From contig CAWDNJ010000001.1 in the NCBI GenBank assembly GCA_963803635.1, forward strand, positions 344,668 to 408,667: a DNA stretch of 64,000 bases, in the 5' to 3' direction. This stretch comes from an uncultured Acidobacteriota bacterium. Its GTDB lineage: Bacteria; Acidobacteriota; Terriglobia; Acidiferrales; UBA7541. A program made the translations under genes and the position numbers. The notes below the pieces were generated by a model. That model was not told the origin of the DNA and did not search any database. It saw only the letters and a program-made list of their open reading frames with translations. Of this stretch, positions 1,685 to 16,529 are shown one piece after another. Within the stretch, counting starts at the first letter, position 1; every line of letters starts with the position of its first letter.

Positions 1685-1965
1685 TTCTCTTTCCTTTTCT
1701 TCGCAGGGAGACACTCCGACCCGTCCCGGGGCGACGTATCGATTTCTGTTTTGGCCCGGAGAAACTGCTAGTGCCGGTTGGAGTGGGAAAGAACCTGCGA
1801 CATCCAGTGTTGTTCGAACCGAAGCTTTCGGGCTTGTTTCGCCCCAGTCTTGATTGCTTTACTCACAGGCAGCATCTTAGAGGACCTTACGATTGATATC
1901 TGTTCACTTGTGCACACATTCGCGCCCTGATTCGCGCGGCGTGTTACGATACAAACTTCAAAACC

Positions 1966-2643
1966 ATGGCAACCACGGCCCGAAATCGCCGGAAAACTGA
2001 TGCCAAACTGGCATTCAACGCCCAGGCGTTTCTCGACTCGGCGGGTGTGGCACGTAAGGTTGCGGAGTTCAAGAAAAAGGAAACGATTTTCTCGCAAGGC
2101 GACCATGGGAAGGAGGTCCTGTACATTCAAAAGGGTGGCGTCAGGCTGTCGGTCGTTAACGAAACTGGCAAAGAGGCTGTTGTAGGAGTGTTGGGCGCCA
2201 ATGACTTTTTCGGCGAGGGATGCCTTGCAGGCCAGTCGCTCCGGATCGGCACGGCGACGGCGATTGTGGCGACCACGGCTCTCGTGATCGAAAAGAAGGA
2301 AATGATTCGCGTCCTTCACTCCGAGCATGAGTTCTCCGACCGCTTCATCACCTACATGCTTTCGAGGAATATCCGGATCGAGGAGGATTTGGTCGATCAG
2401 CTGTTCAATTCGAGCGAGAAGCGGCTGGCCCGCACACTATTGCTGCTCGCCCAGTACGGCAGGGAAGATAAGCCCCAAAAGGTGCTCGCTAAAATATCGC
2501 AAGAGATGCTGGCCGAAATGGTGGGGACAACGCGTTCGCGCGTGAATTTCTTCATGAACAAATTCAGGAAACTCGGCTTCATCAAGTACAACGGCGAGAT
2601 TCACATTAACACCTCGCTCCTCAGCGTCGTCCTGCACGATTAA
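1966..2643 (+). CDS. Crp/Fnr family transcriptional regulator
   Basis: 225 aa. It has a cNMP-binding beta-roll (IFSQGDHGKEVLYIQKGGVRLSV...FFGEGCL) and a C-terminal HTH (SQEMLAEMVGTTRSRVNFFMNKFRKLGFI). Confidence 0.9.
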   Translation: MATTARNRRKTDAKLAFNAQAFLDSAGVARKVAEFKKKETIFSQGDHGKEVLYIQKGGVRLSVVNETGKEAVVGVLGANDFFGEGCLAGQSLRIGTATAIVATTALVIEKKEMIRVLHSEHEFSDRFITYMLSRNIRIEEDLVDQLFNSSEKRLARTLLLLAQYGREDKPQKVLAKISQEMLAEMVGTTRSRVNFFMNKFRKLGFIKYNGEIHINTSLLSVVLHD

Positions 2644-2797
2644 GTCCTGCAGCCCATGTTGACGCTCCAGACCGGCACCCGCCGTGCCTCAATTATCTCC
2701 TATCTGAACTCGAAGTTACGAAGACGAATCAGAACCGCCGAATCCCGATGTACAAGCCGCTTGCGGCACCCTAAAATATCCCTTTCCCAGGAGCCCA

Positions 2798-3814
2798 ATG
2801 AAACACAAGATCACATCAATTCCAGGTGACGGAATCGGACCCGAGGTTTCCCGCGCGGTGCGCGAAATCATCGCCGCGGCAGGCGTCGAAGTCGAATGGG
2901 AAGACACCGAGGCGAAAGGCGACATCCACGAACACGGCGCGGCGTCGATCCGCCACGCGGTCGTCGAGTCCATCCGCAAGAATCGCGTGGCGTTGAAAGG
3001 GCCTCTTGCCACGGCCGTCGCCAGCGGCCCACCGAGCATCAACGTCGCTCTGCGCAAGGCGCTCGACCTTTTCGCCAACGTGCGCCCGGTAAAGAATCTC
3101 GAGGGCGTTCCCTGCCGCTACCAAAACGTCGACTTGGTCCTGATCCGCGAGAATACCGAGGATTTGTACGCCGGGCTCGAGCACACCGTGGTGCCGGGCG
3201 TCGTCGAAAGCCTCAAGATCATCACGGAAAAAGCATCCTCGCGCGTCGCGCGCTACGCCTTCGAATATGCGCGGAAGCACGGCCGCAAAAAGATCCATGC
3301 CATCCACAAAGCGAACATCATGAAGCTTTCGGACGGTCTCTTCCTTTCGTCCGTGCGCGCGATCGCCGAGGAATATCCCGAAATTCAGTATAAGGAACTC
3401 ATCGTCGATAACGCCTGCATGCAGATGGTGCTCAACCCGTCGCAATTCGACATGCTGCTGCTCACCAATCTCTACGGCGACATCATGAGCGACCTCGCCG
3501 CGGGTCTCGTCGGCGGGCTGGGTGTGGTACCGAGTGGAAACATCGGGGCGGACTCGGCGATCTTCGAGGCTGTGCACGGCACCGCGCCGGACATCGCTGG
3601 CAAAGGCGTCGCCAATCCTACCGCCCTGCTGATGAGCGCCATCATGATGCTCGACCACATCGGCGAAACATCGGCCGCGCAGCGAATTGATGCAGCGCTG
3701 CACGAAGTCTATCGCGAAGGCCGCCCGCTCACGCGCGACGTCGGCGGCACGGCCACCACCGCGCAATTCACCGAAGCGGTGATCAACAAACTCGGGGTCG
3801 CCGTCCGCGCGTAG
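2798..3814 (+). CDS. Isocitrate/isopropylmalate dehydrogenase family, most likely NAD-dependent isocitrate dehydrogenase
   Basis: 338 aa. Motifs are IPGDGIGPEV, LKGPLATAVASGPPSINVALRKALDLFANVRP, IRENTEDLYAG and NLYGDIMSDLAAGLVGGLGVVPSGNIG, which resemble IDH3-type enzymes. Confidence 0.85.
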   Translation: MKHKITSIPGDGIGPEVSRAVREIIAAAGVEVEWEDTEAKGDIHEHGAASIRHAVVESIRKNRVALKGPLATAVASGPPSINVALRKALDLFANVRPVKNLEGVPCRYQNVDLVLIRENTEDLYAGLEHTVVPGVVESLKIITEKASSRVARYAFEYARKHGRKKIHAIHKANIMKLSDGLFLSSVRAIAEEYPEIQYKELIVDNACMQMVLNPSQFDMLLLTNLYGDIMSDLAAGLVGGLGVVPSGNIGADSAIFEAVHGTAPDIAGKGVANPTALLMSAIMMLDHIGETSAAQRIDAALHEVYREGRPLTRDVGGTATTAQFTEAVINKLGVAVRA

Positions 3815-3841
3815 TTTGGTCCTGGCCCGCAAACGCCAGAT

Positions 3842-3988: not shown

Positions 3989-4396
3989 TCAGTTCGCAGG
4001 CTCCATATGCAGCACCACGATGGTGTTGGTGCTGCTATCGAGCACGCCGGTGAGCTTCACCTTCTGCCCGGCGTACTTCTCGGCGAGGACCTGATTGTCG
4101 AGCTTGTAGACCTTTTCTTTCACTGATAGCACGAACACGCCGCCCATGTATTTCACGCAGTAGCGCGCGCACTCGGCCGGGGTAGTGCCGATGTTTTTCT
4201 TCTTCAGCATCTCCTCGTGCGAGCGGCTGAGCGAATGCACGTTGAGCGCGCACTGCGAGTCGGAGATATCGCCACTGAAAACCTGCACGCGCTCTCCGGC
4301 CATCATGCCGGCGCGGATCCCGGCCAGCAGGAGAATCACGCCCAACATTGTTGCGATCGTTGCGGCCACGAATCGAACCGAAGTCTTTCTGCTCAT
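3989..4396 (-). CDS. Hypothetical N-terminally anchored protein (135 aa), last gene of the porin/cytochrome/cupredoxin operon
   Basis: AAGGGGAG lies upstream of the ATG at 4396. It has a TM anchor (VRFVAATIATMLGVILLLAGI) and Cys/His-containing segments (SQCALNVHSLSRSHEEM, ECARYCVKYM). The gap to the upstream gene is 31 nt. Confidence 0.7.
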   Translation of the reverse strand: MSRKTSVRFVAATIATMLGVILLLAGIRAGMMAGERVQVFSGDISDSQCALNVHSLSRSHEEMLKKKNIGTTPAECARYCVKYMGGVFVLSVKEKVYKLDNQVLAEKYAGQKVKLTGVLDSSTNTIVVLHMEPAN

Positions 4397-4427
4397 CTTT
4401 CACTCCCCTTGTTTGTATTCCAATAGA

Positions 4428-4874
4428 TCACGGTACGACCACGAACCGCATGTGCATCCCGTCATGATCGTCGCTGCAAATCACGGTGCAGACCACCACG
4501 TATTCGCCAGGTTCGGCCGGCGCCGTCACCGGTAAATCCTGAACTCCCGGCTTCAGCAAGAAATCCCAGCCCGGAACCCTCGAACGATCCTTCGCATGCA
4601 GGAGCGCGAAGCCGTGAATCGAGCCGTCACGGTTGCGATTCTTCGCTTTCCGTGCGGTGATTCGCAGTAAAAGAACCTCGCCCGCATGCGCCGTAATCGT
4701 GGGACTCTCCTGTCCGTCGATCCGGAACCGGCTGTCGTGATCGGCCACGATCTCGATCACGCGCGGTGTGTCTGGCTCCGCCCGGCGCGCCGCGAGCACC
4801 AGCGACAATGCCGCGGCCGTCATCCCGCCTAGCAGCAGCGCCCGGCTCATCGCAGAATCTCTCGAACCATGCAT
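4428..4874 (-). CDS. Cupredoxin-fold protein with CuA-type (Cx3Cx3Hx2M) metal-site spacing
   Basis: 148 aa with an N-terminal signal/anchor (SRALLLGGMTAAALSLVLAARRA). The C-terminal CTVICSDDHDGM has the same spacing as the CuA site of COX2 (CSEICGANHSFM). Upstream His residues sit in SIHGFALLHAK. GGGAGAGG is 8 nt before the ATG at 4874, and an alternative ATG lies at 4850. Confidence 0.8.
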   Translation of the reverse strand: MHGSRDSAMSRALLLGGMTAAALSLVLAARRAEPDTPRVIEIVADHDSRFRIDGQESPTITAHAGEVLLLRITARKAKNRNRDGSIHGFALLHAKDRSRVPGWDFLLKPGVQDLPVTAPAEPGEYVVVCTVICSDDHDGMHMRFVVVP

Positions 4875-9100: not shown

Positions 9101-9994
9101 TTAACGCATGACCAGCTTATCGAGGATCAGCCAACCGAGCAGCAGCGGAATGTGCGCGATGGTCGCGTGCATCAGCCATTTCGCGCGCGCGTTCGTTCGC
9201 GAGCGGTTCGCCCATAGCCCAACTTGCAGCAGCAGCATCCCCAGCACCAGCGCGCCAAAGAAATACAGCTTCCCCGCCATCCCGATCACCGACGGCAGCG
9301 CGCTGACCCATACTAGAATTGCCGACGTGCAAACGATTTGGCGGAAGGTGGAATCGCCGGAGCGGTCGACCACCGGCAGCATGCGGATCCCGGCGCGCGC
9401 GTAGTCTTCGCGATACATCCACGCTATCGACATGAAATGCGGGAACTGCCAGAAGAAAAGAATCGCGACCAGCACCCATCCGCCGAGGCCGAGCGAGCCG
9501 CGGGTGGCGGCCCATCCGATCAGCGGAGGCAGCGCGCCGGGAATCGCGCCGACGGCCGTCGAGAGCGGCGTGCGCGTCTTGAGAGGCGTGTACAGGCCGA
9601 GGTACAGGAGCGACGTCGCCAGCGCGACGAGGCACGCGAGCAGATTCGCGGCAATCGCGAGCCACGCCGCACCCGCCACGATCGTGACGATCCCGAAGAT
9701 CAGCACGTCGCGGGGCTGCAACACGCCCATCGGCAGCGGCCGCGCGGCCGTGCGGCGCATTACCGCGTCCATCTCGCGCTCGATGTATTGATTCAGCGCG
9801 GCCGTCCCGCCCGCCACCAGCATCGTCGCGAGCACGGTGTTCAGCAGCAGCGCCCAATTCATCGCGCCCGTCGAGCCAAGATAGAATCCCGCGACCGTGG
9901 TCATTACAACGAGAAATGTCACGTCCGGCTTGGTGAGCACGACGTACGCCCACGGCTTCTCGTAGTTCGTGATCGTGGCGGCGCGTTCGTTCAT
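9101..9994 (-). CDS. ctaB: Protoheme IX farnesyltransferase (heme o synthase)
   Basis: Internal ATG at 9994 (MNERAATITNYEKPWAYVVLTKPDVTFLVVMTT). It is a UbiA-family polytopic protein with YIEREMDAVMRRTAARPLP. Its start overlaps the ctaA stop (ATGA at 9991-9994). Confidence 0.9.
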   Translation of the reverse strand: MNERAATITNYEKPWAYVVLTKPDVTFLVVMTTVAGFYLGSTGAMNWALLLNTVLATMLVAGGTAALNQYIEREMDAVMRRTAARPLPMGVLQPRDVLIFGIVTIVAGAAWLAIAANLLACLVALATSLLYLGLYTPLKTRTPLSTAVGAIPGALPPLIGWAATRGSLGLGGWVLVAILFFWQFPHFMSIAWMYREDYARAGIRMLPVVDRSGDSTFRQIVCTSAILVWVSALPSVIGMAGKLYFFGALVLGMLLLQVGLWANRSRTNARAKWLMHATIAHIPLLLGWLILDKLVMR

Positions 9995-10920
9995 TGCGCT
10001 GCCCTCACGCCTTCGCTCGCATGCGCCACCGCTGCCGAGCCCGCCCGCCGCGTCAGCCGCTGGCACGTGAGAGTGAGCAGCACGGACGCGGCGATGGTCA
10101 GCGCACCGCCGACCACGTGGGCCGCCGTCAGCGTGACGTAGAGCGTCGTCGGCTGCACGGCGGCGATTCCGGAAGTCATCGCCCACCACGCCGCGAATCC
10201 CAACAGAATCTGTATCCCGAAGAACATATGCAGCCACATCACGCGCCGCCGAAGGTCACGCACGCCGCGAAAACGCTTCTTCACGACGCGGCCGGTCCAG
10301 ACCACCATCAGGGTCACCGCGCCCGCTCCGATCAAATGCGGCACGATCCCAAGAGCGCCGTGGCGGAAAGCGGCGCCCAAAAGAATCTGGCCGAGGATCA
10401 CGAGTGTCGTCCACCACCCGAGCGTCGTGGCGCGCAGCGAGCCGGAATCTTCGAGGTGCGGCAGCTCGCTCTGCCACCACGGGCTCAGGTAGAGAGCGAT
10501 TCCCACCAGCGTTACAAAGAAGACCTGCGCCAGCGTCGCGTGCGCGGTGGCGGAAACGATCGGAGCGCCTTCGAGAACCCGGATTCCGCCGAGGATCGCC
10601 TGCGCCACGACGAGCGCGACCGCGTTCCAGCCCAGGCTCTTGGCCAGCGGACGGCGGTCCTTGGCCGTGATCCACACGGCCAGGATGAGCGTCATGATCG
10701 AGACGATTCCGGCAATCACGCGGTGCGAATATTCGAAGCGAATGCCGCCGACAAAGGGAGGAATCAGCCGGTGGTAAGCGAGGGGCCAATCGGGAACGGA
10801 ATCTCCGGCGTCGTTGTTCGTCACCAGCGCGCCCGCCATCAGCAGCAGCACCGTGAACCACGCCGTCGTCACCGCAAAGCGGTATAGACCGCGAGACGTT
10901 GGAGTGGAGTTTGGCGCCAT
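9991..10920 (-). CDS. ctaA: Heme a synthase (COX15/CtaA family)
   Basis: 309 aa with about 8 TM helices. It has conserved His-containing motifs (EYSHRVIAGIV, ATAHATLAQVFF, FRHGALGIVPHLIGAG, LTAAHVVGGAL). Confidence 0.85.
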   Translation of the reverse strand: MAPNSTPTSRGLYRFAVTTAWFTVLLLMAGALVTNNDAGDSVPDWPLAYHRLIPPFVGGIRFEYSHRVIAGIVSIMTLILAVWITAKDRRPLAKSLGWNAVALVVAQAILGGIRVLEGAPIVSATAHATLAQVFFVTLVGIALYLSPWWQSELPHLEDSGSLRATTLGWWTTLVILGQILLGAAFRHGALGIVPHLIGAGAVTLMVVWTGRVVKKRFRGVRDLRRRVMWLHMFFGIQILLGFAAWWAMTSGIAAVQPTTLYVTLTAAHVVGGALTIAASVLLTLTCQRLTRRAGSAAVAHASEGVRAAQ

Positions 10921-11112
10921 CAGCTCTCTGCGATCGTGTTTCCCCGCGCTCCGTTGCGTTGAAGAGCTTTCATTCTATGCATCGCGCCCGGAAAACGCAA
11001 AACTTTCCGACGGACGGAACGAGGCTAGGGATTCGCGTAAATCACGCAGTACCGATGCGCCCTCAGGATTCTTGCGTCCTCGGCCTTCGAGACGGGGACA
11101 TTTTTCTCTCCC

Positions 11113-11589
11113 TCACGCACCGACTCGGCCCGCATCAAGTCCTCGAAGCCCGGCGCTGATTGTATCGGTTCCGATGTTGTCCACGGAGACCCACGTATTC
11201 GCGGGAATGAAGATTGTCGCGCCGGCGTGCACCACTCTCACTGAGTTTCCCAAATGCGCGCGCGCGGTTCCACTCTCCAGAAAGAGGATTTCGTCTGAAC
11301 CGGGGTGCTTGTGCCGGTCGATCGCGCCTCCGGGCCGGATTTCTGCGGTGAAAAATACCATGTGCGAGGAGCCTCCGTTCTTCGGGTCGACCTTGATAAT
11401 GAAAGTCTCACCGGGATCAGGATGTCCGGACCACGGCCTGACAACTCGCCGCTCGCCTTCGTTCTTCTCGAGGATGAGTGGCGTCGGTTTGACTACGCTC
11501 GCTGGTTCCGGGGCTGGGGCCGGCGGCACGCTGGCGCTGCCGCATACCACGACTGCAAGAACGGCGATGCCGAATCGAGTAATTCTCAC
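11113..11589 (-). CDS. Secreted cupin-domain protein, probably frameshifted near its 3-prime end (see finding)
   Basis: I prefer the GTG at 11589 (GAGGAGG 6 nt upstream, VRITRFGIAVLAVVVCGSAS signal). The cupin core is GGAIDRHKHPGSDEILFLESGTARAHLGNSVRVVHAGATIFIPANTWV. A plausible C-terminal continuation lies in another frame down to 11025. Confidence 0.7.
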   Translation of the reverse strand: MRITRFGIAVLAVVVCGSASVPPAPAPEPASVVKPTPLILEKNEGERRVVRPWSGHPDPGETFIIKVDPKNGGSSHMVFFTAEIRPGGAIDRHKHPGSDEILFLESGTARAHLGNSVRVVHAGATIFIPANTWVSVDNIGTDTISAGLRGLDAGRVGA

Positions 11590-11699
11590 GGTGGGCCTCC
11601 TCTCAGAATCGGATGGGCCGAATGTGGTCCTACTGTAGCTCACATTGCTGAGCTGGATGAGACAAAAACCACGATCACAAAATGTTGCGCGGAATGGTT

Positions 11700-11712
11700 T
11701 AGTGCTGCACTA
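11700..11712. promoter_or_regulatory. 13-nt perfect palindrome TAGTGCTGCACTA in the cupin/marR divergent intergenic region (candidate MarR operator)
   Basis: The palindrome was read directly from the sequence. It sits 143 nt upstream of the marR ATG and 111 nt upstream of the cupin start. Confidence 0.3.
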
Positions 11713-11854
11713 TTTCGTGGTGGATGATGCAACCCCCTAGCGGGGCCAATTTTGGCGGCTTTTGGACGTGGCGACCGCTTAAAACGGGGGTAAATCGGCG
11801 ACTTTCAGTTTGGGGGCGCGCCTGCGGGCCCAGCCTGCTCCGGGCGAATAGGGG

Positions 11855-12343
11855 GTGAATATGGATGGCGCAAACGAGCGAAGCGAGCGGGCGCTGAGGG
11901 CGTACTCGGGTTTGATCCGGGCGGCGGATTCCGTCACGCGGCTGCTGGAAATGCAGCTCGAACCGATGCGGCTGACGCTGAGCCAGGGGCGGGTGCTGGG
12001 GGCGCTGGCGAAGTTTGGTCCCATGAGCCATCTGAGCCTGGCGAGAAAGATTTTGCGGAGCAAGAGCGCGGTCGCGCTCGTGGTGAAAGAGCTTGAGAGA
12101 CGGCGGCTGGTCACCTCGCGGACGGACAAGCGCGACCGCAGGAAGCAGACGGCTCGCGTGACGCTGGCGGGAAACAAGCTGGCGGCGGAGCTGGTTCCCG
12201 TACACACGAGATTGATTCGGGCGCAGATGGCGGCGCTCGGAGGGCGGGAGCAGGAGACGTTGGCGCGGCTGTGCGAGAAATTGGTCGCGGGAAATTCGAT
12301 GAGGTTCGCGGAGGAATTCGTGCAGGCGGAGGCGGGGGAATAA
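11855..12343 (+). CDS. MarR family transcriptional regulator
   Basis: 162 aa with a winged-helix pattern: LTLSQGRVLGALAKFGPMSHLSLARKILRSKSAVALVVKELERRRLVTSRTDKRDRRKQTARVTLAG. Confidence 0.9.
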   Translation: MNMDGANERSERALRAYSGLIRAADSVTRLLEMQLEPMRLTLSQGRVLGALAKFGPMSHLSLARKILRSKSAVALVVKELERRRLVTSRTDKRDRRKQTARVTLAGNKLAAELVPVHTRLIRAQMAALGGREQETLARLCEKLVAGNSMRFAEEFVQAEAGE

Positions 12344-12443
12344 CGGACGCTGGGGTGGGGAGCGGTGCACGTGCTACGGAGCGCAAGACGAAAACATGCT
12401 GCGGGTGAAACCGCGCAGCGGTTTGCTCGCTACGCTCGTTATC

Positions 12444-12569
12444 TTTTTCGAGAGCCTGAAGGCTCACGCTTCCACCGGTGATTCCTCGTCGGACCGAGTC
12501 CGACATCGTAGGAAGGCAAAGCAAGATCGCCCGCCTGAAGGCAAGGCGGCCGCTACAAAGGCGGGAACC
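12444..12569 (+). repeat. Two REP-like family C elements (12444-12485 and 12527-12569)
   Basis: The first copy, tttttcgagagcctgaaggctcacgcttccaccggtgattcc, matches 9022-9072. The second, atcgcccgcctgaaggcaaggcggccgctacaaaggcgggaacc, matches 15572-15620 and 55561-55610. Confidence 0.75.
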
Positions 12570-12653
12570 GAAAAACCCTCGCGACAAAGGTGGCCCTCGG
12601 CTAGATTATAGAAAGTGTTCTGACCGGACGATTAGAATTGAGAGATTGAACGT

Positions 12654-12992
12654 ATGGCAATACGAAGGAATAAACCGCAAATCGTTCCGAGCTCGGGAAA
12701 TGTTTTCGCCGATCTGCGTCTGCCGCAATCCGAGGAGAAGCAGACGAAGGTGCGGCTGGCTGTGGCCATCAATCAGATCATCGCGGGGCAGGACCTTTCA
12801 CAGGTGGCTGCCGGGCGGCGCCTGAAAATCAATCAGCCGAAAATCTCTGCGCTCGCGAATTACCGCCTCGACGGCTTCTCCGTCGAGCGCTTGATGCATT
12901 TCCTCGCGGCTCTGGACCGCGACGTCGAAATCGTCATCCGCCCGAAGCCCCGCTCGCGCAAAGGCGCGCGAATCCCCGTCACCGCCGCATGA
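12654..12992 (+). CDS. XRE-family HTH protein, HigA2-like antitoxin architecture, with no toxin partner
   Basis: 112 aa. The N-terminal SSGNVFADLRLPQSEE segment followed by the HTH (GQDLSQVAAGRRLKINQPKISALANYRLDGFSVERLMHFLAALDRDVEIVI) matches the HigA2-type layout. No RelE/HigB-like ORF lies upstream. Confidence 0.8.
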   Translation: MAIRRNKPQIVPSSGNVFADLRLPQSEEKQTKVRLAVAINQIIAGQDLSQVAAGRRLKINQPKISALANYRLDGFSVERLMHFLAALDRDVEIVIRPKPRSRKGARIPVTAA

Positions 12993-13021
12993 TTTTATTC
13001 GGGGGACGCTGATTCCTCGTA

Positions 13022-13050
13022 TTGACTATGGACGCGTGCCATAGCACACT
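13022..13050 (+). promoter_or_regulatory. Possible promoter/operator of the 645-aa gene: TTGACT (13022-13027), inverted repeat CTATGG-N7-CCATAG (13026-13044), weak -10-like CACACT (13045-13050)
   Basis: Read directly from the sequence. The -10 is weak, so the promoter call is tentative. The inverted repeat is exact for 6+6 nt. Confidence 0.3.
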
Positions 13051-13080
13051 TCGCGCTGATCAACTCTCTCCTTAGTCCAG

Positions 13081-15018
13081 ATGCGAACACTGACTGCATT
13101 CGTGGCCCGGAGCTTTTCCCCGAGCGATGATCGTAAGATCAAGCCTATCCTCGATCATCTGGATACGTTTCGAAATCTGGGCTTTGTGTGGAAGTCTGCG
13201 GAGCCGGCAGAGGTTGAGAGCGTTTCCGAAAAGGTTCAACGCATAATCGCCGAGTGTGAAGTGTTCGTGGGCGTATTGTCGCAGAGGCATCCCATATTTC
13301 GTTTCGCTAATCCCCTCGGTGATGCCTGGAGAATCCTCCGGAGAGAACTTAAGCCAGCCCAGTGGTCAGCTCCCCCGTGGGTCCTCCAAGAGGTAGGCTT
13401 TGCGCTTGGACTTCAAAAGAAGGTGATCCTATTTGTCGAGACGCAACTGGATTTGCCGGCCCTTCAGGGCGATCTGGAGTATATCCCATACGACCATCTG
13501 GATCCGACCGACGCATTTCTTCGATCGAGCAGCATGATCGTTGGACTGATTGCCAAGAGAGACGGACTCGCCGTCGAAACGGTTGTCCGCGAGGGAGCAG
13601 CCGAGGCGCAGGCACCTGAGAAGGCATCCGCGGAAGCAACCGAGGCGCCCCCGCAAACGGCGGCGGCAGAACCTCTCTTAACGGACGTCGTTTTTAGATT
13701 TTTTGAGGCTCTCGAGAAAAAAGACTTCTCGGCAGCGGATGAACAGGAAGAGGCTGGCCTAAAAGTCATAGCGGCCGGACGTACGTCCATGACGGAACTC
13801 AGCTGGAAGTGCTTCTGCCTTTCCGATAGATACGTCGCCGGCGATACTGAGGCCATCGAAAAACTAAGGGCCCTTCAAGAAGCGAACCCGCAGGACCAGG
13901 CGCCGTCCATGCAAATAGGACGCGCCCTCATGGAGTTCAAAGAGTTCGAACAAGCTGCGAGGTATTTCGAGCGCGCGGGGGAGATTTCGCAGAGGGATAG
14001 CGAAAGAGTCCACAACGTTTTGCGCGCCGCAGACGCATACGTGCAGGCCAAAATGGTCCACCGGGCTGAAAGTATCTTGGTCGGAATGCTGGACGGCGCC
14101 GGGCCTGAGTCCAGAGAGCAGGCATCTCAGAAGTTATACGACATACTAAAGTGTTCAAGCGACATCTACGCAGCCTTCGGCCTTGCCGAAGCGACACTTC
14201 GGAACAATCCCGCCTTAACTTCCTTCAGATTTCGGCTCGGCCTGGACTACAATGAAAAGAATCAGGATGCCCTGTTCCTCTATCACTACAGCCTTCTCCA
14301 AGAACACGACCCAAACGGGGCGGGCGTTATTCACAACTTAGCCCTGGCGTTCTCAAGCTGCGATCTACCCATGAAGTCCGTTTCCTACTATAAGAAGGGG
14401 ATCGAATTGGGCGAAACGCTTTCCGCAAACAATCTTGCGCGTAAGTACTTAGACGCTGGGATTGTTGATGAAACGCAGGCCATGCTGATGGATGCTCTGA
14501 AGAAACCCGATGTTGATGCCAGAGTGGGGCAGTGTTTGGGCGAACTTCGTGACAGACAGGAGAGGGAAGAGAAGAAGTATGCGAGTGTCATGGAAGCTGC
14601 GAACGAGCAACGGTCGTTCCTTATAGCTGTCGGCGAAGGCCGATTTCAAAGCGTTGTGCCAGTCATCGCGGGTCGGTGGCTGATGCCATTCGGTGAAATG
14701 GAACTTCAGCAAACATCTGAAGTTCTCAAGGGAACAGCACAGAAGGCGGAGAAGGCATCCGCGTTTTCGACCCTGCTTGGTGGCCCAAAAGAGAAAATTC
14801 GAACCTTTACGTTGATCGGCTCCATGAAAGGAGCGGCCTGTACGTTCCGGTTGACGAGCGGCTTCGGGGAGACCCCAGAAGAGATCCTCAGCGCTGGACC
14901 GGACACAGTCGATGGAGTTCTTGTATTCGGCCCTGAGGGCAAAACCGGCCGTTATGCCGAAATTAAGGAGCGCGGCTTGTCGAATTTTGCTCCCATTACG
15001 CGTCTGCCCGGTACATGA
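13081..15018 (+). CDS. TIR-like/DUF4062-like N-terminal domain + TPR-like repeats + unknown C-terminal domain (645 aa)
   Basis: The N-terminus reads FVARSFSPSDD...KVQRIIAECEVFVGVLS...SAPPWVLQEVGFALGLQKKVILFVE, a TIR-like Rossmannoid pattern with a candidate catalytic Glu. Residues about 200-500 are helical repeats (AARYFERAGE, NNPALTSFRFRLGLDY, SVSYYKKGIELGE). The C-terminal ~130 aa are unassigned. Sampled lines give about 50-55% GC. Confidence 0.7.
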   Translation: MRTLTAFVARSFSPSDDRKIKPILDHLDTFRNLGFVWKSAEPAEVESVSEKVQRIIAECEVFVGVLSQRHPIFRFANPLGDAWRILRRELKPAQWSAPPWVLQEVGFALGLQKKVILFVETQLDLPALQGDLEYIPYDHLDPTDAFLRSSSMIVGLIAKRDGLAVETVVREGAAEAQAPEKASAEATEAPPQTAAAEPLLTDVVFRFFEALEKKDFSAADEQEEAGLKVIAAGRTSMTELSWKCFCLSDRYVAGDTEAIEKLRALQEANPQDQAPSMQIGRALMEFKEFEQAARYFERAGEISQRDSERVHNVLRAADAYVQAKMVHRAESILVGMLDGAGPESREQASQKLYDILKCSSDIYAAFGLAEATLRNNPALTSFRFRLGLDYNEKNQDALFLYHYSLLQEHDPNGAGVIHNLALAFSSCDLPMKSVSYYKKGIELGETLSANNLARKYLDAGIVDETQAMLMDALKKPDVDARVGQCLGELRDRQEREEKKYASVMEAANEQRSFLIAVGEGRFQSVVPVIAGRWLMPFGEMELQQTSEVLKGTAQKAEKASAFSTLLGGPKEKIRTFTLIGSMKGAACTFRLTSGFGETPEEILSAGPDTVDGVLVFGPEGKTGRYAEIKERGLSNFAPITRLPGT

Positions 15019-15571
15019 GTTGCGCCCGGAACATCCTTTGATCAAATTGCCGCCATGCGCTGGTCGGGGTGCGCCAGAACTCTTGCCCGCGCCTGCTCAT
15101 GGCCGAGTTTCGACGGGGCGTCGGGGAGCTGGCGTGGGCGAGATGATACAGGTGGCGGGTGGATGGTGGCAGGTGGCGGGTTGGGCGGGCCGGTTCCGGC
15201 GGATTGCGGATTTGAGATTTCAGGTTTGAGAGAAATCCGCCCATCCGAAGGCGAGACAGGACCCCACGAAGCGGAGGTTCCCGCCGTGCCGGCGCCGAGA
15301 TTCCTCAGGCCTCGCCACGGCGCCCACTTTTCGCGCGGTGCGAGGTGAATGGGCGCGAAAATCGGGCTGCTCCGCCTTCGGAATGACGGGTCCCGGGGAT
15401 TGGCGGCAGAGGATATCTGAGGCTGCTACGAACGGCCACGGCTGCCGCGCTAAAAGGCCGCGGCGCTACATTTAGACCTCGATGCAAGGGCCCGCGCAGC
15501 AAGCCTTCGTCGCTCAGGCCAAGGCAGCGCCCCTACGAAGCAAACCCCCAAAAAAACAAAACCATAAGGCA

Positions 15572-15620
15572 AAACCGCCCGCCTGAAAGGCGGCCGCTAC
15601 GAAGGCAACGGCTGCCGCGC
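15572..15620 (+). repeat. REP-like element, family C variant (aaaccgcccgcctgaaaggcggccgctacgaaggcaacggctgccg)
   Basis: It is nearly identical to 55561-55610. A related copy lies at 12527-12569, a degenerate one at 15436-15475, and an inverted fragment at 53926-53950. Confidence 0.8.
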
Positions 15621-15668
15621 GATCCGCCACGGCGGACGCAGACAATGCGCACGGCGACGGCGGAGACG

Positions 15669-16529
15669 TTACGAAAATCTTGGGAGGGCGATGTGGAGGA
15701 ATTCGACCGGGTGGCTGGCCTGAACGGTGGCCGTGGCTTGGTCGCCCGTCGGCAGATAGATCGAGGCGCGGGGGCTGAAGGCGGTTGCGCGCGCGATTCC
15801 CTGCTCTGCTGCGCAGACCGAACCCGAGCCGCGGATGGCGAAATAGATGGAGTTGTCGGCGAGGGGGAGCGTGGCGCCCGGAAGAATTTGGTACATGGCG
15901 ATTTGGGTGCGGCGCTCGGAGAATTCGCCGAGGTGTTTGCTGGCGACGCCGGGATGATTTGCGAGCGGCGTCCAATCGAAGCTGGCTGGGTCCATGAAGA
16001 CGGGGCGGAGGTAGCGCTCGGGCGGGTAGACGAGCGGGCGGGCGTTGACCTGTTCCCAGACGGCTTCGTAGGCATCTTTGTTGATTTTGGCGCCGTCGGG
16101 CTGGAGGCGGGTGTAGACGCCTCGCGCGAAGCTGCCGTGCCGGGCGAGTTCGGCCGCGGCTTTTTCGTATTGGTCGGCGGCGATGTAGCCGCTGCCGCTG
16201 GCGCCGCCGAATTGCAGGACGAGCGTGGAATTTTCGCGGTCGCTCGATTGCGGGCCGTAGTGCGTCCCTTCGGGGAAATAGCCGAGGCAGCCCTCCTTCA
16301 TCACGCCGTCGGAAGCGAAATCGAAATCGCCCTCGAGCTGGAAGCGGACCTGATCGAAATTGTGTCGATGGCGCGGAGAATAGTAGCTGGGCGTGACGCC
16401 GAGCTGCAGCGCGAAATTTCCGGGAGTCCCGGGAGTCCCATTGAGGATGCGGCGCGAGCGGAAGACTCCTTCGCGGACGTGCTGCCGCTCGATTAGGGGC
16501 GCGCTTTCGAGTTCGACAACCTGGATCAC
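15669..16529 (-). CDS. Bicupin-type (two cupin-like halves) protein of unknown function
   Basis: 286 aa. The N-terminal half has SPRHRHNFDQVRFQLEGDFDF...GYFPEGTHYGPQ. The C-terminal half has beta-rich cupin-like segments (IAMYQILPGATLPLADNSIYFAIRGSG). Confidence 0.65.
   Translation of the reverse strand: MIQVVELESAPLIERQHVREGVFRSRRILNGTPGTPGNFALQLGVTPSYYSPRHRHNFDQVRFQLEGDFDFASDGVMKEGCLGYFPEGTHYGPQSSDRENSTLVLQFGGASGSGYIAADQYEKAAAELARHGSFARGVYTRLQPDGAKINKDAYEAVWEQVNARPLVYPPERYLRPVFMDPASFDWTPLANHPGVASKHLGEFSERRTQIAMYQILPGATLPLADNSIYFAIRGSGSVCAAEQGIARATAFSPRASIYLPTGDQATATVQASHPVEFLHIALPRFS

Follow-up and report, generated by a model that had tools for sequence, protein, structure and literature searches.

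Do a small helix-turn-helix (HTH) gene and the gene directly behind it, which encodes a protein of 645 amino acids (aa), form a two-gene defence cassette, or are they neighbours by accident? We asked this of a 64,000-nucleotide (nt) stretch of DNA from an uncultured Acidobacteriota bacterium (GenBank assembly GCA_963803635.1, contig CAWDNJ010000001.1), called the window throughout, in which the two open reading frames (ORFs) occupy positions 12654 to 15018. A sequence-only reading had described both ORFs and the 88-nt spacer between them correctly, and had proposed that an orphan antitoxin-type HTH protein was recruited to regulate or neutralise a TIR-like effector with repeats. The account that we now consider probable is a different one, namely an orphan antitoxin at a hotspot of gene exchange and, adjacent to it, an unrelated, solitary gene for a single-protein candidate NADase of defence.

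We assessed whether the two genes belong together from loci of their relatives in other genomes and contigs, which carry L numbers below. Among 80 metagenomic loci with a homologue of the 645-aa protein, 55 had at least 500 nt of upstream DNA, and in none of these (0/55) did a relative of the HTH, a member of the Pfam family HTH_37, lie upstream; the five loci with called genes (L001, L003/L004, L010/L011, L012) likewise had no HTH directly upstream of the homologue. The expectation that homologues would always be preceded by the HTH, put forward with the sequence-only reading, was thus not borne out, and the operator typical of the HTH family was absent upstream of the homologues as well (0/67 loci). 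The 109 ORFs flanking the homologues included no conserved partner and were mostly housekeeping genes (gyrA, dehydrogenases, peptidases), with a defence-related or mobile minority (TIR_2 twice, SLATT, HepT, two PD-T4-6-like kinases, a DDE transposase and an integrase), and no conserved ThsA or other signalling partner gene was found in more than 80 homologue loci. Downstream neighbours of the HTH were equally diverse and mostly housekeeping, with Aminotran_5 in nine cases, Metallophos in three, SIR2 and integrases in two each, and AbiEi, a type I methyltransferase and an AriA-like ATPase besides. The HTH family is also far more abundant and conserved than that of the 645-aa protein, with relatives 72-94% identical to the window HTH vs at most 50% for the closest homologues of the larger protein.

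How the two genes came to adjoin is visible in five related genomes, metagenome-assembled genomes (MAGs) of Candidatus Acidiferrales or Acidobacteriota (L024, L025, L026, L028, L065), which are syntenic with the window and 85-92% identical to it at 9.1-12.5 kb and again from ~15.3-15.7 kb on. All five keep the HTH, and in all five the alignment breaks completely 5-12 nt past the HTH stop codon, to resume at a right junction that varies by genome within a region (~15266-15655) rich in repeats that resemble repetitive extragenic palindromic (REP) elements. The segment in between is replaced. Two genomes (L025, L026) hold a SIR2_2 protein there (Pfam E = 3e-27) with PADLOC hits to PDC-S25, ThsA, LmuA and Dsr, L028 holds an ABC ATPase with PADLOC hits to AriA, AriAB, NsnB and GajA, and L024 and L065 hold a non-defence protein (Table 1). 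The locus is therefore a cargo-swapping hotspot anchored at a toxin-antitoxin (TA) module, and as all but one of the four cargo types resemble defence genes, position itself lends support to a defence role of the 645-aa gene. Base composition differs in the direction that the sequence-only reading had estimated by hand, and by less than its 50-55% against 65-72%: G+C content (GC) is 0.546 and GC at third codon positions (GC3) is 0.60 in the 645-aa gene, compared with 0.64-0.66 and 0.79-0.82 in the genes that flank the pair, while the HTH gene (GC 0.605, GC3 0.735) is near the window mean of 0.61. These results indicate that the 645-aa gene was horizontally acquired and is solitary, and that a gene-swapping hotspot has brought the two genes together by accident, not as parts of a two-gene system; the claim of a recruited HTH gives way to the homologue loci and to the exchange of cargo among syntenic genomes.

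The HTH gene is an antitoxin gene that is intact but orphaned, the remnant of a type II TA module of the Gp49(HigB-like)/HTH_37 kind. Its product matches HTH_37 with E = 3e-26 and has more than 7,900 homologues, the best 120 of which, mostly proteins of 112 aa, share 72-93% identity with it, and the antitoxins of complete modules are 82-94% identical to it. In relatives 82-88% identical, a gene for a 128-aa Gp49 toxin (PF05973, HigB-like) precedes the HTH with a 20-nt overlap. Scored with a hidden Markov model (HMM) of the toxin, 61 of 80 HTH loci in reference genomes had an adjacent Gp49 gene and 19/80 were orphans, as were 15/42 acidobacterial loci. Upstream of the window HTH there was neither an ORF for a Gp49 toxin nor a remnant of one (with two cognate Gp49 toxins as tblastn queries, no hit in 11600-13100 had E below 1.6, and none in the entire window E below 0.66), and DNA similarity between the window and TA loci starts at 12653, approximately at the HTH start codon. 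Orphan status, as claimed from sequence, is thereby upheld. The earlier label of a HigA2-like HTH survives as to the antitoxin-type HTH but not as to kinship with HigA2, since V. cholerae HigA2 was not retrieved by phmmer against PDB sequences, which gave only 2O38 and 2A6C at E <= 0.01; the closest solved structure is 2O38, a structural-genomics 'hypothetical protein' (E = 2e-36). A name that is justified is HigA-type antitoxin partnered with Gp49/HigB-type toxins. Gp49/HTH_37 modules have been described in, for example, Tn3-family transposons (PMC7157771), and the window protein is a close antitoxin member of that group (72-94% identical), whereas the toxin gene overlapping the antitoxin gene and the palindromic operator that mark such modules are both missing here.

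Complete modules share a promoter-operator of the form TTGAC-N5/6-TATCCCA-N4-TGGGATA-AT, in which the palindrome spans the -10 box, ~20-45 nt upstream of the Gp49 toxin start (L025-L062; for example L025:3085-3130). With up to two mismatches it was present at 26/27 acidobacterial TA loci and was kept directly upstream of the HTH in 9/15 orphan loci, which implies precise deletion of the toxin gene in the latter. No TATCCCA-N4-TGGGATA occurs in the 64-kb window, and the best match within 12300-13100 has 5/14 mismatches. The recognition helix, NQPKISALANY, is identical in the window HTH and in the operator-bearing relative of L025, so the DNA specificity of the window protein is probably unchanged. 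In the lineage of the window, toxin gene and promoter-operator have been lost and the antitoxin gene kept; if the HTH protein is still active, its most likely targets would be cognate operators or toxins at other sites in the genome, reached in trans. Other genomes hold the HTH gene in truncated form (L065:3492-3710, residues 1-67; L087:3501-3647, residues 64-112), which shows that orphan copies decay in some lineages.

A word-indexed search for the 645-aa protein yielded ~70 full-length homologues, 30-50% identical, of which the few that are named come from Acidobacteria. An exhaustive profile search with the N-terminal domain retrieved 1,507 representative clusters at E <= 1e-3, 233 of them at E <= 1e-30, and most of the top 150 clusters were ~640-660 aa long, which indicates that a three-part architecture (N-terminal domain, helical repeats, C-terminal domain) is conserved. 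The family has no annotation in Pfam, NCBIfam or PADLOC-DB 2.0, a literature search found no paper that describes it, and tblastn against annotated plasmids and phage genomes gave no match. The NCBIfam scan returned nothing useful on either protein beyond weak TPR matches. As the sequence-only reading had noted for the P-loop, the protein has no Walker A motif; it also has no hydrophobic or transmembrane segment, and no nucleoside triphosphatase (NTPase) match appeared in Pfam or PADLOC. Assignment to Avs/STAND proteins was rejected on the missing P-loop/Walker A and NTPase match, and a signal-peptide or membrane protein on the missing hydrophobic segment.

Conservation within the family is strongest in the N-terminal domain, where F7, F12, V48, K51, I56, W100, Q103, E104, G106, A108, E120, L128, E133 and Y134 are invariant. 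The candidate catalytic Glu that had been picked out in the motif LQEVG is E104, which is invariant in 62/62 sequences. An AlphaFold2 model built on the domain alignment gave a confident alpha/beta fold (predicted local distance difference test, pLDDT, 89; predicted template modelling score, pTM, 0.83). Its best Foldseek match in the PDB was the cytidine monophosphate (CMP) N-glycosidase BcmB (4jen; E = 1e-5, target-normalised TM 0.72), followed by DNPH1 (E = 1e-4) and nucleoside 2'-deoxyribosyltransferases (NDTs), and TIR domains (SARM1 TIR, plant RRS1 TIR) were matched at E = 3e-4 to 6e-3.

The relation to TIR families was assessed with hhalign, in which the domain profile aligned with a small set of Pfam-verified TIR_2 domains at E = 0.004 over 99 columns, pairing SFSPSD with SHSSRD, CEVFVGVLS with CDWFLVVLT and WVLQE(104) with WVKRE; relative to TIR_2, the window domain carries an insert of ~28 residues between strand C and helix C. 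In the alignments, the Glu that corresponds to E104 is that of 'WVKRE' and 'FLQE' in TIR_2 and of 'CLRE' in a DUF4062 domain. Matches to single TIR_2 or DUF4062 sequences, and to a DUF4062 subfamily alignment, were not significant (E = 0.07-0.12) and kept a consistent register, and the profile against PDB sequences returned noise only (E >= 0.4). Sub-threshold hits to TIR_2 were found in 10/32 family members (best E = 3e-4), to DUF4062 in 12/32 (best E = 0.018), to CAP12/Pycsar TIR in 4/32 and to NDT in 2/32. Motifs specific to DUF4062 are a Q/W/E near residue 50 and an acidic S-x-T-E-x-E-Y with the catalytic Glu (Evangelion preprint), and our DUF4062 alignment, A6, has invariant W49-E50 and E96-E97. 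The N-terminal aromatic motif of DUF4062 is present in the family (F7, F12), but the 'W-E' and 'TEEEY' motifs are missing, their sites being occupied by AEVESVS and WVLQE, respectively. Judged by alignment and predicted fold, the domain appears to be a divergent branch of the TIR-like N-glycosidase superfamily that falls by threshold in neither Pfam family, with a motif that looks closer to canonical TIR than to DUF4062. The earlier TIR-like/DUF4062-like assignment accordingly stands for the fold and not for Pfam membership.

The middle of the protein, where TPR-like repeats had been proposed, gave weak matches to TPR_19, TPR_1, PilW and MamA in Pfam and NCBIfam (residues 253-343 and 387-452), on which the repeats are taken as TPR-like, and it contains the invariant polar residues E370, R383, N419, N451 and G460. 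The C-terminal domain was confidently modelled as one helix and nine antiparallel strands (pLDDT 91.5). As had been stated from sequence, it is beta-rich and hard to place: it matched no Pfam family and no viral fold in BFVD, and against PDB folds the best E was 0.03, with TM 0.36-0.50 (the anti-sigma factor RsfG, FABP, avidin and RBP4), a weak resemblance of the model to calycin-like barrels. Residues 243-605 (window 13807-14895) match positions 136-495 of the 538-position profile phrog_31809, a family of phage proteins without assigned function, at E = 8.6e-13; the TPR and C-terminal sensor module may, on this profile match, be shared with phage- or prophage-encoded proteins.

With a TIR-superfamily N-terminal domain, helical repeats, a C-terminal domain and no NTPase, the protein is a reasonable candidate for a combined effector and sensor, as had been suggested. 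The activity, substrate, trigger and defence role that we infer for it would be as follows. The 2.3-kb low-GC3 cargo segment would bring its own promoter region together with the solitary gene, whose product would be a single-protein defence enzyme of the abortive-infection type. By way of Glu104, the N-terminal domain would cleave NAD+ (nicotinamide adenine dinucleotide) or a related nucleotide N-glycosidic bond, and it would be kept inactive as long as the TPR-like repeats and C-terminal beta domain have not bound a protein or ligand derived from phage. Once they have, oligomerisation or activation of the sort typical of TIR-like NADases would become possible, and NAD+ cleavage would follow.

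Proteins of this general kind have been described in three 2026 preprints: a TIR-like NADase (DUF4062/NIR), joined in one gene to helical repeats or auxiliary domains, defends the cell against phage by depleting NAD+, and it needs the equivalent Glu to do so. Vulcan joins an NIR domain (catalytic Glu E98) to HEAT repeats, is triggered by a phage protein and depletes NAD+ (bioRxiv 10.64898/2026.09.04.749371); Swarozyc (E97), whose auxiliary domain binds the phage portal, and Evangelion (E87) require the auxiliary or sensor region for activity (bioRxiv 10.64898/2026.05.01.722283, 10.64898/2026.06.25.731849); and in PsAvs2 the catalytic Glu is E108. E104 falls within the range of residues 97-108 in which the catalytic Glu of tested NIR/DUF4062 NADases lies. 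The comparison with Vulcan covered architecture and logic: both are single genes with an N-terminal TIR-like N-glycosidase fold, a Glu ~100 residues in, alpha-helical repeats and no NTPase, and in both the repeats are proposed to sense a phage protein before NAD+ is depleted in abortive infection. Unlike Vulcan, the window protein has an N-terminal domain below the DUF4062 threshold, no 'W-E' motif, a TIR-style WxxxE around the Glu, TPR-like instead of HEAT repeats, an extra C-terminal beta domain of 140 aa and an Acidobacteriota host. With Swarozyc and Evangelion it shares the single gene, the TIR-like NADase core with a divergent C-terminal auxiliary or sensor region, and horizontal spread, whereas their auxiliary regions are short or unrelated to its own, and they are bona fide DUF4062 proteins with the Q/W/E and acidic-SYT motifs, both of which the 645-aa family lacks. 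Compared with canonical TIR effectors (TIR_2; ThsB, TIR-STING, TIR-APAZ/SPARTA, SARM1-type), it has the same fold and a W-x-x-x-E with Glu at the catalytic position, but its Pfam scores are sub-threshold, it carries the insert described above, and it has no ThsA, STING, Argonaute or CD-NTase partner. In SARM1, too, a TIR NADase is joined to helical repeats (ARM), which serve as its autoinhibitory sensor. Assignment to Thoeris was rejected, with no ThsA partner and no PADLOC hit to ThsA or ThsB.

Several observations weigh against the reading of a solitary defence NADase beside an unrelated antitoxin. PADLOC, which had been proposed as a check, matched no defence model to either the HTH or the 645-aa protein, ThsA and ThsB included. 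Pfam TIR gave no hit for the window protein at E <= 1, its match to Pfam DUF4062 (PF13271) was below the cut-off (E = 0.1, 13.2 bits vs 24.7), and hhalign against a 22-sequence DUF4062 alignment, representing one narrow subfamily, gave E = 0.068 over 24 columns. Since nucleotide N-glycosidases (BcmB, DNPH1) outrank TIR domains among the fold matches, the substrate may be other than NAD+. Enrichment of the family in defence islands, which the sequence-only reading had asked about, appears weak: some neighbours are defence-related or mobile, but most are housekeeping genes. As to the two genes together, they are co-directional, and no terminator-like site lies between them, so read-through co-transcription is possible. 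TIR-like genes also lie within 3.5 kb of the HTH in three other acidobacterial loci (L034, L035, L040), more such co-occurrences than we would expect by chance.

The fold matches might indicate that the 645-aa protein has no part in immunity and belongs with N-glycosidases or transferases of nucleotides or nucleosides such as DNPH1, BcmB/MilB or NDT, with a role in nucleotide salvage, modified-nucleotide clearance or secondary metabolism and with its TPR and beta domains serving regulation or scaffolding, an alternative that we regard as rather unlikely. Besides the BcmB and DNPH1 matches, a sub-threshold Pfam Nuc_deoxyrib_tr hit (PF05014-type; E = 0.13, residues 102-124 only), the prevalence of housekeeping neighbours and the missing PADLOC hit agree with it, and the stretch E-x-G-x-A-(4)-K-x-[IV]-[IL] that begins at E104 is one which we take to resemble the catalytic-Glu motif of NDT and DNPH1. 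Yet the same list of fold neighbours, with a CMP hydrolase on top and ribosyltransferases and TIR domains among the rest, was reported for DUF4062/NIR in a 2026 preprint, so that published NADases share it, and hhalign favours TIR_2 over the whole domain. A metabolic enzyme is also at odds with the lack of a conserved metabolic partner, the patchy distribution, the low GC3, a slot otherwise filled by SIR2 or AriA-like genes, and the fusion to a large repeat 'sensor', which is typical of immune effectors.

That the pair is nevertheless a functional cassette, with the orphan HTH recruited as repressor or neutraliser of the TIR-like/TPR effector and the inverted repeat at 13026-13044 as its operator, we consider very unlikely. 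In its favour are the shared strand and 88-nt distance of the genes, with no terminator-like site in between, and the palindrome beside a TTGAC hexamer, a layout like that of the promoter-operator in the TA family; in addition, the HTH family occurs near TIR-like genes elsewhere (L034 in reversed order, L040, L017-L021, L035) and directly precedes SIR2 or AriA-like genes in L025, L026 and L028. Against it stand the homologue loci, none of which has the HTH upstream, and the mostly housekeeping genes downstream of the HTH. Moreover, the recognition helix is unchanged, yet the family operator is absent from the window and from the upstream regions of 67/67 homologues. The exact repeat CTATGG-N7-CCATAG overlapping TTGACT is where the sequence-only reading had put it, but by its half-sites it is not the operator of the HTH family (TATGG, compared with TATCC in the family operator), and it occurs only in the window's own contigs (L005-L009). 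Some 6+6 palindrome is expected in an 88-nt spacer with a chance estimated at ~0.15, which is not rare. As the alignment with syntenic genomes breaks 5-12 nt past the HTH stop, palindrome and TTGACT belong to the cargo and not to the conserved HTH segment, and, lying inside it, the two (13023-13044) are a candidate promoter/operator for the 645-aa gene. Each co-occurrence has its own gene order and spacing, a pattern better explained by co-localisation in islands than by an operon; TA modules and defence genes commonly cluster in the same variable islands, and we attribute the TIR-like genes near the HTH in several lineages to this. Regulation of the 645-aa gene by the HTH has, in our judgement, poor odds.

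Least likely is a protein without enzymatic output, a TPR scaffold or regulator whose TIR-like domain would serve interaction or oligomerisation and not catalysis: scaffolding is common among TIR domains, the Glu is the sole enzymatic motif identified and the Pfam hits are sub-threshold, but the polar residues K51, Q103, E104, E120, E133 and Y134 are invariant across sequences 30-50% identical, a cluster that points to an active site, and hhalign places the Glu at the catalytic position.

Individual loci of the two families show varied surroundings. The only other co-occurrence of both families found was in L034, from a different MAG, where a 652-aa homologue (L034:1458-3416) lies directly upstream of an orphan HTH (3501-3839) that keeps the operator at -33, in an order reversed relative to the window. 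On many contigs (L017-L021, 4001-5630; also L040, 1135-2740), an 86%-identical orphan HTH has two small canonical TIR genes (129 and 153 aa) 441 nt behind it; in L035 (1075-3836) this TIR pair is found on the upstream side of a complete Gp49/HTH module. Among loci of the 645-aa family, L003 (4389-12230) and L004 hold a homologue beside two genes of a casposon-like set, one for a Cas1 of 506 aa and one for a protein of 961 aa that faintly matches family-B DNA polymerases, with a Pycsar-type pair (cyclase and PycTM) also nearby. In L001, from a 6.5-Mb genome, a bona fide DUF4062-TPR protein of 585 aa (1887-3644) is encoded ~4 kb upstream of the homologue, with a divergent sigma70/anti-sigma pair between the two genes. 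Canonical TIR_2 proteins are convergent downstream neighbours of two homologues (L111:6273-7355(-), L146:6321-7700(-)). In L010, the 663-aa homologue P0004 has a distant Gp49 and XRE-HTH pair (HTH_26, weak HTH_37; 4184-4833) 1.2 kb upstream, beyond a MOSC gene on the opposite strand.

The layout of the locus is given in Table 1. The sigma70-like promoter match 5' of the HTH reads TAGAAA-18-TAGAAT (12609-12638). REP-like copies do lie on both sides of the pair, as the sequence-only reading had it, but they do not bracket it specifically: the core GGCGGCCGCTAC (<=1 mismatch) has 6 copies in the 64-kb window, mostly preceded by CCGCCTGAA(G)G, and the element occupies intergenic regions. Related copies also occur in the syntenic MAG loci, and an Rfam scan of 11500-16000 gave no match at E <= 0.1. 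Upstream (window 9991-12343) lie COX15/CtaA, UbiA-family, DUF420, Cupin_2 and MarR genes, and downstream (15669-16529) Cupin_7-like, DUF4440 and Rieske genes; such housekeeping or accessory flanks fit a chromosomal location, not a plasmid or prophage.

Table 1 Features of the locus and of the corresponding cargo in syntenic genomes (window positions unless an L number is given).
Feature	Position	Strand	Remarks
Intergenic region 5' of HTH	12344-12653	.	REP-like copies and sigma70-like promoter match
REP-like dispersed repeat, left copy	12518-12562	+	pairs with 15566-15606
HTH ORF	12654-12992	+	112 aa
Variable cargo segment	13003-15265	.	GC 0.556, low GC3; replaced in syntenic genomes
TTGACT hexamer	13023-13028	+	overlaps inverted repeat
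Exact inverted repeat CTATGG-N7-CCATAG	13026-13044	+	in 88-nt spacer, within cargo segment
645-aa ORF	13081-15018	+	645 aa; 88-nt spacer after HTH ORF
Putative N-terminal TIR-superfamily (N-glycosidase fold) domain	13081-13596	+	residues 1-172
Glu104 codon, candidate catalytic residue in W100-V-L-Q-E104	13390-13392	+
Acidic Ala-rich linker (~173-205) and TPR-like helical repeats (~205-504)	13597-14592	+
C-terminal domain	14593-15018	+	residues 505-645
REP-like dispersed repeat, right copy	15566-15606	+	inside REP-rich right border of cargo
REP-like core GGCGGCCGCTAC copies	7781, 8084, 12545, 15589, 53926, 55580
L025, L026 cargo	L025:3849-5162, L026:3906-5162		437-aa SIR2_2 protein, after Gp49 and HTH
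L028 cargo	L028:3990-5732		580-aa AAA_15/AAA_21 ATPase, after orphan HTH
L024, L065 cargo	L024:3884-5224, L065:3937-5346	-	WXXGXW-repeat protein, non-defence

Taken more broadly, and as a tentative proposal to which we give somewhat less than even chances, the ~650-aa proteins may be a large family new to description, mainly in Acidobacteriota, that forms a branch of TIR-like immune NADases apart from both TIR_2 and DUF4062/NIR. Their TPR and calycin-like region would be a new sensor, perhaps one that binds small molecules, apparently shared with phrog_31809, and the 3' end of a HigBA-like antitoxin gene would be a preferred insertion point for SIR2, AriA-like and TIR-like single-gene defence cargos. 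At least several hundred clusters share the architecture. The HTH part of the locus is ordinary, and the solitary gene is best filed under a known kind, the single-gene fusion of a TIR-like NADase to a repeat sensor, within which it has a new C-terminal domain and a mainly acidobacterial distribution.

The orphan status of the HTH keeps the pair from being misannotated as a 'two-gene system'. The locus is a clean natural case of cargo exchange, in which a SIR2 gene, an AriA-like ATPase gene and a TIR-like gene take the same fixed position after an antitoxin gene, and positional equivalence at this slot is useful for finding further single-gene defence candidates. If our inference about the 645-aa protein holds, it would add a large branch from soil bacteria of the Acidobacteriota to the recently recognised TIR-like/NIR NADase immune effectors. 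The C-terminal sensor domain of this branch would be new, and its architecture of helical repeats that gate a TIR-type NADase would parallel those of Vulcan and SARM1.

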